The translations under genes were made by a program, and so were the position numbers. From a candidate division FCPU426 bacterium (GTDB lineage: Bacteria; Oederibacteriota; Muellerivitia; Muellerivitales; Muellerivitaceae): a DNA stretch of 64,000 nucleotides. Below, in pieces: positions 38,918 to 39,306 of the stretch. The DNA lies in NCBI GenBank assembly GCA_963771075.1, contig CAVYSE010000014.1, forward strand, positions 32,226-96,225, read 5' to 3'. A model generated the notes under the pieces. It was given only the letters and a program-made list of their open reading frames with translations, was not told the origin of the DNA and ran no database searches. Position 1 is the stretch's first letter, and every line of letters begins with the position of its first letter.

Positions 38918-38957
38918 AAAAGGTTCGGGAAAAACCCGAACCCGTTTTTAGCGGGTT
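38918..38957 (-). terminator. Mutually exclusive hairpins / putative terminator after the second aptamer
   Basis: Minus strand AACCCG-CTAAAAA-CGGGTT overlaps GGTTCGGG-TTTTT-CCCGAACC-TTTT. Confidence 0.5.
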
Positions 38958-38985
38958 GGGATGATGAGGGGACTCATGATCTCTC

Positions 38986-39073
38986 ACCGCTTTAGCGCCC
39001 TGTTTTTCCCGCTTTCAAACTTCGAAAAACGGGACCGGCCGGGGCAAGTTGGTACTGATTAAAGCCTCGCCGG
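38986..39073 (-). ncRNA. Candidate SAM-II/SAM-V-like riboswitch aptamer, copy 2 (gene-proximal)
   Basis: CCGGC-GAGGCUUUAA..CCAACUUGCCCCG-GCCGG-[hairpin]-AAAACAGGGCGCUAAAGCGG; P1 CCGGC/GCCGG; pseudoknot UUGC/GCUAA. Confidence 0.7.
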
Positions 39074-39131
39074 AATTGCCAATTTTTCCCTTGGAAATCG
39101 TCCTCGAACGCCTGATTTCCGCGGGCTCCCC

Positions 39132-39172
39132 AAACAAAAAAACCCAAGTCGCTTTTGAAGCGGCTCGGGTTT
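39132..39172 (-). terminator. Intrinsic terminator (expression platform of aptamer 1)
   Basis: Minus strand AAACCCGAGCCGCTT-CAA-AAGCGACTTGGGTTT-TTTT; its GCCGCTT can instead pair with AAGCGGC at the aptamer 3' end. Confidence 0.8.
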
Positions 39173-39193
39173 AGGAGTTTCCCTTAAACTTTC

Positions 39194-39264
39194 GCCGCTT
39201 TAGCTCCCTGTTTACCTTATCTTCAGGAACGCCGGGGCAAGTTGGACCTTAACGCCTCGCGTTT
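39194..39264 (-). ncRNA. Candidate SAM-II/SAM-V-like riboswitch aptamer, copy 1 (promoter-proximal)
   Basis: AACGC-GAGGCGUUAA..CCAACUUGCCCCG-GCGUU-[hairpin]-UAAACAGGGAGCUAAAGCGGC; P1 covaries with copy 2. Confidence 0.7.
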
Positions 39265-39277
39265 GCAACTGGGTAAA

Positions 39278-39306
39278 AGTGTAGGTCTAGGCTTAGGGTT
39301 TGTCAA
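39278..39306 (-). promoter_or_regulatory. Sigma70 promoter of the metY-cysK-metX-metW operon
   Basis: TTGACA-N17-TACACT, 13 nt upstream of aptamer 1. Confidence 0.85.

Follow-up and report, generated by a model that had tools for sequence, protein, structure and literature searches.

The window, a stretch of 64,000 nucleotides from a candidate division FCPU426 bacterium, carries on its minus strand a 386-nt metY leader in which a promoter-like site, a first aptamer copy, terminator 1, a second aptamer copy and the hairpins 2a/2b follow one another. Four genes are closely packed 3' of the leader on the same strand, and the operon metY-cysK-metX-metW read by the initial annotation is confirmed by profile matches for all four: metY, of the O-acetylhomoserine sulfhydrylase family (37597..38889; TIGR01326, 675 bits against a cut-off of 495), with a Shine-Dalgarno-like AAGGA at 38901-38897; cysK, cysteine synthase A (36652..37587; TIGR01139, 463 bits); metX, homoserine O-acetyltransferase (35465..36655; NF001209, 500 bits), which probably starts at a GTG overlapping the cysK stop; and metW (34873..35493; TIGR02081, 233 bits). 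The sigma-70-type promoter TTGACA-N17-TACACT previously proposed ahead of the leader is present at 39278..39306 (minus strand) as a consensus match only (10 of 12 positions); one site of this grade was found against 0.4 expected, and its position predicts a transcription start near 39271. Just upstream of this promoter, at 39400-39375, lies the terminator of a gene (39446-40783, minus strand) for a 445-aa secreted-looking protein that has a Trp/Tyr-rich stretch and no NCBIfam or Pfam match, and a protein of 2993 aa, which contains a long tandem repeat rich in Thr, is encoded at 42967-51948, also on the minus strand. A serine hydrolase gene (PF06821; 34086-34622, minus strand) is located 250 nt beyond metW and may be in the regulon, because a homologue follows a motif-controlled methyltransferase gene at loci L262 and L263.

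The two copies had been described as sharing a core and a tail, and the minus-strand sequence and the alignment agree with this: a 15-nt core, CCAACTTGCCCCGGC, is identical in both, and the alignment also shows a common head and tail. Copy 1 (39195..39263, minus strand; 78.1 bits with our model R1, with covariation in homologues) consists of P1 (39263-39259/39232-39228, AACGC/GCGUU), the third strand GAGGCGUUAA (39258-39249), the P2 5' strand (39245-39233), a short P3 hairpin and the P2 3' strand (39210-39195), in which 39202 is the equivalent of the bulged U47 of SAM-V and 39199 that of A50. Copy 2 (38987..39073, minus strand; 73.4 bits) has its P1 at 39073-39069/39039-39035 (CCGGC/GCCGG), the canonical UUU in its third strand, a long P3 (39034-39007; -12.4 kcal/mol) and its U47 equivalent at 38994; the compensatory swap of P1 between the copies noted at the outset is therefore found at these sites. 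The G said to replace the canonical U10 in copy 1 is real as well (39253, where SAM-V has U8), and at the SAM-II positions named in PMC3764141 (U10 U11 U12, U20 U21 G22 C23 and G42-A47) copy 2 agrees at 13 of 13 and copy 1 at 12 of 13, with G for U10. The motif is not a chance occurrence, because a core-and-tail pattern has just 4 matches in the 4.4-Mb genome, and a similar pattern is found in 26 of the 99 genomes of the phylum, against 0 of 99 for the reversed control. Minimum-free-energy folding of the whole leader (z -1.42) was uninformative, since pseudoknots cannot form in such folding.

Each copy is followed by a candidate expression platform. A strong terminator after copy 1, with a 5' arm GCCGCUU able to pair with the aptamer tail, had been predicted, and folding bears out both parts: the intrinsic terminator 1 (39133..39172, minus strand; stem 39172-39140 plus a U run) has a stability of -17.8 kcal/mol (z -4.96), and the alternative fold, in which the copy 1 tail takes up the antiterminator partner GCCGCUU (39164-39158) of the 5' arm, reaches -17.7 kcal/mol. 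The end of copy 2 lies ~100 nt ahead of the metY start with a terminator in between, namely the terminator-like hairpin 2a (38930..38960, minus strand; stem 38960-38935 with a U5 tract; -12.8 kcal/mol, z -2.33), whose 5' arm contains CCGCU (38954-38950), complementary to the copy 2 tail. A competing hairpin 2b (38917..38943, minus strand; stem 38943-38921, then UUUUC; -15.9 kcal/mol), which has a counterpart in genome G003, uses the 3' arm of 2a and forms when the antiterminator forms; because 2b is more stable than 2a and the U run is short, the second platform is less clean. In partial transcripts of the window, the aptamer tail folds onto the terminator 5' arm at -17.7 and -14.2 kcal/mol. 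Among the homologues, a hairpin with a U run stands within 110 nt downstream of 126 of 149 copies, compared with 94 of 447 shuffles, and CCGC, the complement of the aptamer tail, occurs in the 5' arm or loop of 109 of these 126 terminators, compared with 10 of the 94 shuffle hairpins, corroborating the termination mechanism of the initial annotation. In the compact relatives L161-L163, L262 and L263, the tail overlies the Shine-Dalgarno sequence instead.

To build the alignment of model R1, 82 copies were picked from 108 parsed ones by short insert and P1 pairing. Every P1 cell is paired in this pairing-filtered alignment and 3 of the 4 pairs show double changes; when no pairing filter is applied, 103 of 116 copies still pair at all four positions, and mis-parsed heads account for about half of the remainder. 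The P1 swaps seen are C-G/U-A, G-C/C-G and C-G/A-U. P3 ranges from absent, as in some compact homologues, to ~45 nt, with double changes in all 4 tested pairs and 77.5% of the cells paired, which agrees with the internal hairpin that was said to vary in length while staying paired. The P2 extension that follows UUG shows full pairing in 146 of 164 copies (a count that keeps a few mis-parsed rows), with a mean of 115 for shuffled partners and 0 of 2000 shuffles as high, values that overstate the case and are not probabilities because homologues are kin. The number of distinct P2 compensations is the stronger point: CUCCG occurs with G(C/U/A)GAG in 24 copies and CCUCG with AGAGG, A26-U39, U22-A45, G22-C45 and A23-U44 are found in addition, and the bulge moves where CCCCG becomes CUCCG. 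The UUG/C-U-AA part of P2 has no covariation because it never varies, and the invariance of the core is partly a matter of selection, since its letters served as the search pattern. RNAalifold on the aligned copies returned P1 and minor pairs only. The covariation in P1 and in the P2 extension upholds the H-type pseudoknot, and the proposed check by a covariance model across genomes yielded both this covariation and an association with sulfur genes.

Model R1 gave 137 matches in 36 of the 99 genomes of the window's phylum that were searched, including a 24-bit match in G045 that is probably chance, with up to 12 copies per genome. The motif is present in 28 of the 30 other genomes of the window's family; the only two family genomes without it are G010 and G019 (85% and 97% complete). 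By a 300-nt rule, 98 of the 137 matches stand in clusters, and the 83 clusters comprise 34 doublets and 10 triplets. Five strong matches occur in the window's genome, the two metY-leader copies and another three upstream of a porin-sulfate ABC operon on contig C20. This triple copy (G000:C20:65061-65667; L044 2562-3168) is followed by genes for an OprO/P porin, a sulfate-binding protein and sulfate ABC components, with cysD further on; one ORF of the operon is presumably HPr-like. The third copy holds a 127-nt insert between the third strand and P2, containing a hairpin and a U run, which is absent in the G003 counterpart. The initial annotation took the host to be probably outside the usual alphaproteobacteria. 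Besides the FCPU426 phylum, we found the motif in 9 of 151 genomes sampled from the phylum to which an Elusimicrobia-labelled record belongs and in 4 of 101 genomes from the class of an Acidobacteria-labelled record. Scanning across species with the pattern yielded 49 loci, most of them submitted under the labels uncultured bacterium, Elusimicrobia, Firestonebacteria and Acidobacteria. Two pattern-scan loci of 18-20 bits without the head (L110, L112) and two loci inside an ORF (L258, L264) were judged to be chance and left out of all counts. The viral contigs scanned for the motif gave 0 matches.

The association with methionine, SAM and sulfur genes that is a trait of the SAM-II/SAM-V superfamily was found for the motif as well. 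With repeats of metY and peroxiredoxin left out, 63 of the 99 first-downstream ORFs were compared with Pfam, and 42 received a family while 21, some of them in wrong frames, did not. OprO/P porins make up 15 of the 42; DsrE, ABC ATPases and homocysteine methyltransferase account for three each; Cys/Met PLP enzymes, solute-binding proteins, ExbB, DUF3034 and methyltransferases for two each; and sulfite reductase, PAPS reductase, NMT1, PALP, peroxiredoxin, encapsulin, FAD and TPR proteins for one each. NCBIfam confirmed cysD/cysN, the sulfate-binding protein, APS reductase, cysK, a family 2A encapsulin and the metH N-terminus. Compact relatives precede metH at L075, L191, L192 and L193; the motif was found neither in 25 family metK loci (1.5-kb flanks only) nor before the metH of the window's genome, and 20 metK loci had no Rfam family. 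One metK match (G074:C19:172322-173442) is in five pieces, probably owing to assembly frameshifts. At L195, L196, L197 and L082, of an Acidobacteria-labelled group, the gene behind the motif encodes a conserved protein of 89-99 aa without a Pfam family, and conserved ORFs of 109-116 aa, likewise without a Pfam family, directly follow tandem copies at L176 677-1027, L175 9000-9329 and L072 1635-1979, where DsrE and ExbB-ExbD-TonB-receptor genes are the neighbours.

SAM-I riboswitches are present in 27 of the 31 family genomes, mostly before a threonine-synthase-like gene, a pairing that is family-wide. The SAM-I of the window's genome (72.4 bits; G000:C5:67866-67997, L229) also precedes such a gene, which is apparently frameshifted near its start in the assembly. 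In G010, G019 and G013, SAM-I stands before metW-metY. At L161 (94-343; G004:C4), a SAM-I/IV aptamer with a terminator-like hairpin is directly followed by a compact, translational copy of the motif, and the gene behind these aptamers encodes a TPR protein. A SAM-I/IV aptamer ahead of SAM-II is an arrangement reported in PMC9481103.

For the ligand pocket, we compared both copies with SAM-V as described in PMC6061858, in which U47 pairs with the adenine of SAM, A50 contacts the amino-acid end and the sulfonium lies opposite U9/U20. The letters for these contacts and for the triples U9-U20-A48 and U10-U19-A49 are found in both copies at the bhmT spacing, so that, by sequence, the SAM contacts are kept in both copies of the predicted pocket. 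A7, which forms a triple with G21-C46, and A18, which pairs with A50, flank the SAM-V pocket in the same source; both are C in copies 1 and 2 and in 104 of 146 parsed homologues, and both are A in 10 of the 146.

We consider it probable, with good confidence, that the leader holds two complete transcriptional OFF switches in series, each composed of a variant SAM-II/SAM-V aptamer and a terminator, that sense SAM. The aptamer would be an H-type pseudoknot with a 4-bp P1, a variable P3 and a third strand, GAGGC(U/G)UUAA, placed in the P2 major groove, where the triple helix is inferred from the SAM-V structure; P2 would exceed that of SAM-V in length, pairing UUGCCCCG with C-W-GGG-N-GC-U-AA around one moving bulge and ending in a CC/GG P2a cap. 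We infer the ligand and the direction of control as follows. When SAM is low, the free tail AAGCGG would pair with CCGCU in the terminator 5' arm, so that the polymerase would read through. Bound SAM would place its adenine on the bulged U, its sulfonium between two U carbonyls and its amino-acid end against the third A of CUAAA. With SAM in place the tail would be locked in the pseudoknot, the terminator would form and metY-cysK-metX-metW would not be transcribed, an OFF switch; having two such switches one after the other should make the response steeper. SAM is the likely ligand because SAM-I precedes metY in G010 and G019, the two family genomes that lack the motif, because compact relatives precede metH, and because L259, a compact homologue of the A7/A18 form, scores 24.3 bits on SAM_V across the motif (gathering threshold of RF01826, 41 bits). 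The context at L161 also favours SAM, since a SAM-I/IV aptamer precedes the compact copy there as reported for SAM-II. Against SAM stand the C at A7 and A18 in both copies, the lack of a copy near metK in the 25 family loci or before the metH of the window's genome, the separate SAM-I in that genome, the split between subtypes and genes described below, and the absence of an Rfam SAM score for the window copies even at E 10.

In a rival reading the fold is the same and the ligand has changed, such that SAM is sensed by the compact A7/A18 forms and by SAM-I, whereas the main C7/C18 subfamily, including both window copies, responds to a different metabolite of sulfur status. Of the eight canonical A7/U8/A18 copies, five precede metH and the others cysD, a methyltransferase gene and a gene left unclassified; in the subtype table, metH is assigned to none of the 104 C7/C18 copies, SAM-I coexists in 27 of the 31 family genomes, and the regulon has the look of a reaction to sulfate starvation, with porins, sulfate ABC, 1-Cys peroxiredoxin, TonB/ExbBD and family 2A encapsulin. 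However, lineage confounds the split between subtypes and genes, and a pattern demanding A7 supplied 4 of the 8 A7/A18 copies; L191 lies before metH although it carries C7 and C18; SAM-II long-loop rows also show C ahead of UUGC; SAM-I stands before metY in close relatives; and all direct SAM contacts appear to be kept, so we regard a changed ligand as unlikely. If it were true, this extended-triplex C7/C18 subfamily would be a master switch, beside SAM-I, of a sulfate-starvation regulon comprising porin, sulfate ABC, peroxiredoxin, TonB/ExbBD, encapsulin and metY.

A two-input gate, in which the copies belong to the same ligand class but the G8-bearing copy 1 is distinct in ligand, is the least probable alternative. 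Five genomes of three genera retain G8 in their first metY copy (L014-L018), and PMC3764141 describes U10 as completely conserved in SAM-II. The place is U in copy 2 and G in 9 of 116 homologues. The first metY copy of G011 (L033), however, has U there, and among copies that precede unrelated sulfur genes G8 is seen in first as well as second ones. In PMC6061858, moreover, U8 of SAM-V bonds to U47 and does not touch SAM, and the bhmT SAM-V, which reads AGUUGAA in Table S1 and by our by-eye alignment appears to have G at place 8 too, binds SAM at 0.5 uM. Of the early suggestion that the two aptamers may differ in affinity or ligand, the part on affinity may hold, whereas a difference in ligand is poorly backed, since the bhmT RNA, apparently with G, binds SAM. 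It is also very unlikely that the motif, instead of sensing a metabolite, is a DNA operator or an RNA leader bound by a sulfur-responsive antitermination protein: a protein site would fit the strong conservation in few lineages and the many copies per genome, but not the compensatory pairing in three helices, the strand-specific placement, the inserts of up to 127 nt tolerated within the motif, the coupling to both terminators and Shine-Dalgarno sequences, or the position-for-position match to a known small-molecule pocket. Readings as a DNA operator or a repeat element were rejected on account of the covariation and the tolerated inserts.

The preferred reading remains that of SAM-responsive OFF switches, and across the family the genes for sulfur uptake and assimilation are most likely shut off when S-adenosylmethionine is plentiful. 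As judged from sequence, the motif is a well-covarying, uncatalogued variant of the SAM-II/SAM-V superfamily and a sulfur-regulon switch with predicted ligand binding. It appears to run a whole sulfur-acquisition regulon in uncultured lineages where annotation is currently blank, and it links DUF3034, orphan porins, a serine hydrolase and small hypothetical proteins to sulfur. The longer, G-rich triplex with its natural compensations, together with the C7/C18, G8 and compact A7/A18 forms, offers a series for studying pocket affinity or a change of ligand.

In comparison with known systems, the motif is outside all three Rfam families concerned, both by score and by the full set of defining positions. 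Rfam at gathering cut-offs gave 0 matches in the whole 64-kb window, a search at E 10 over 38700-39500 gave sub-threshold hairpin matches only, none to a SAM model, and the SAM-II, SAM-II long loops and SAM-V models run on the genome matched at neither copy, so that the suggested check against Rfam SAM models finds the motif unmodelled there; RF00521 and RF01726 each exceeded the cut-off in 0 of the 99 phylum genomes. A full-text literature search, chiefly of open-access papers, found no description of the motif among the papers covered, and GCUAAAGCGG has 0 occurrences in the 8 supplement files of PMC2864571, one of them covered in part. With SAM-II (RF00521; metX, PDB 2QWY) the motif shares the GxUUUAA loop and the UUGC/GC-U-AAA core. 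Whereas the short P2b of SAM-II runs into P1, the motif has 4-5 extra P2 pairs, backed by compensation, between UUGC and P1, as well as a P3 hairpin and a longer L1. Terminator platforms and doublets are known for SAM-II, with 44 tandem SAM-II in the passages on tandems of PMC9481103, which do not mention a triplet. The SAM-II long loops family (RF01726; Weinberg 2010, PMC2864571), as far as the available alignment rows show, has a longer L1, an optional L3 hairpin and, in some rows, a C before UUGC, as in the motif, but UUGCAA stands directly before P1, the tail is A-rich and the rows examined have no CCCCG/GGG extension.

SAM-V (RF01826; metY and bhmT of Ca. Pelagibacter; PDB 6FZ0; PMC6061858) has in common with the motif the H-type pseudoknot, the 4-bp P1, the third strand, a P3 hairpin with an A-rich linker that separates P1 from the P2 3' strand, the control of metY and, from the positions given there, U9, U10, U19, U20, G21, C46, U47, A48, A49 and A50; bhmT SAM-V, in the same source, also has the CC/GG P2a and the same CC-3nt-UUG and CUAA-3nt-GG spacings. 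The motif differs in that its P2 is longer and G/C-rich with a moving bulge, its third strand begins GAGG, A7/A18 are mostly C and G11 mostly A, it forms same-class doublets and triplets, RF01826 misses it, and most copies use terminators where SAM-V uses Shine-Dalgarno occlusion. The divergent SAM-II/SAM-V-type fold of the initial annotation, in tandem and with a longer L1 and pseudoknot helix, has thus held up. Its architecture is closest to SAM-V, with the P3 hairpin, A-rich linker, longer P2 and same spacings, while termination would be SAM-II-style, and this unmodelled branch of the superfamily would join the SAM-V architecture to terminator control.
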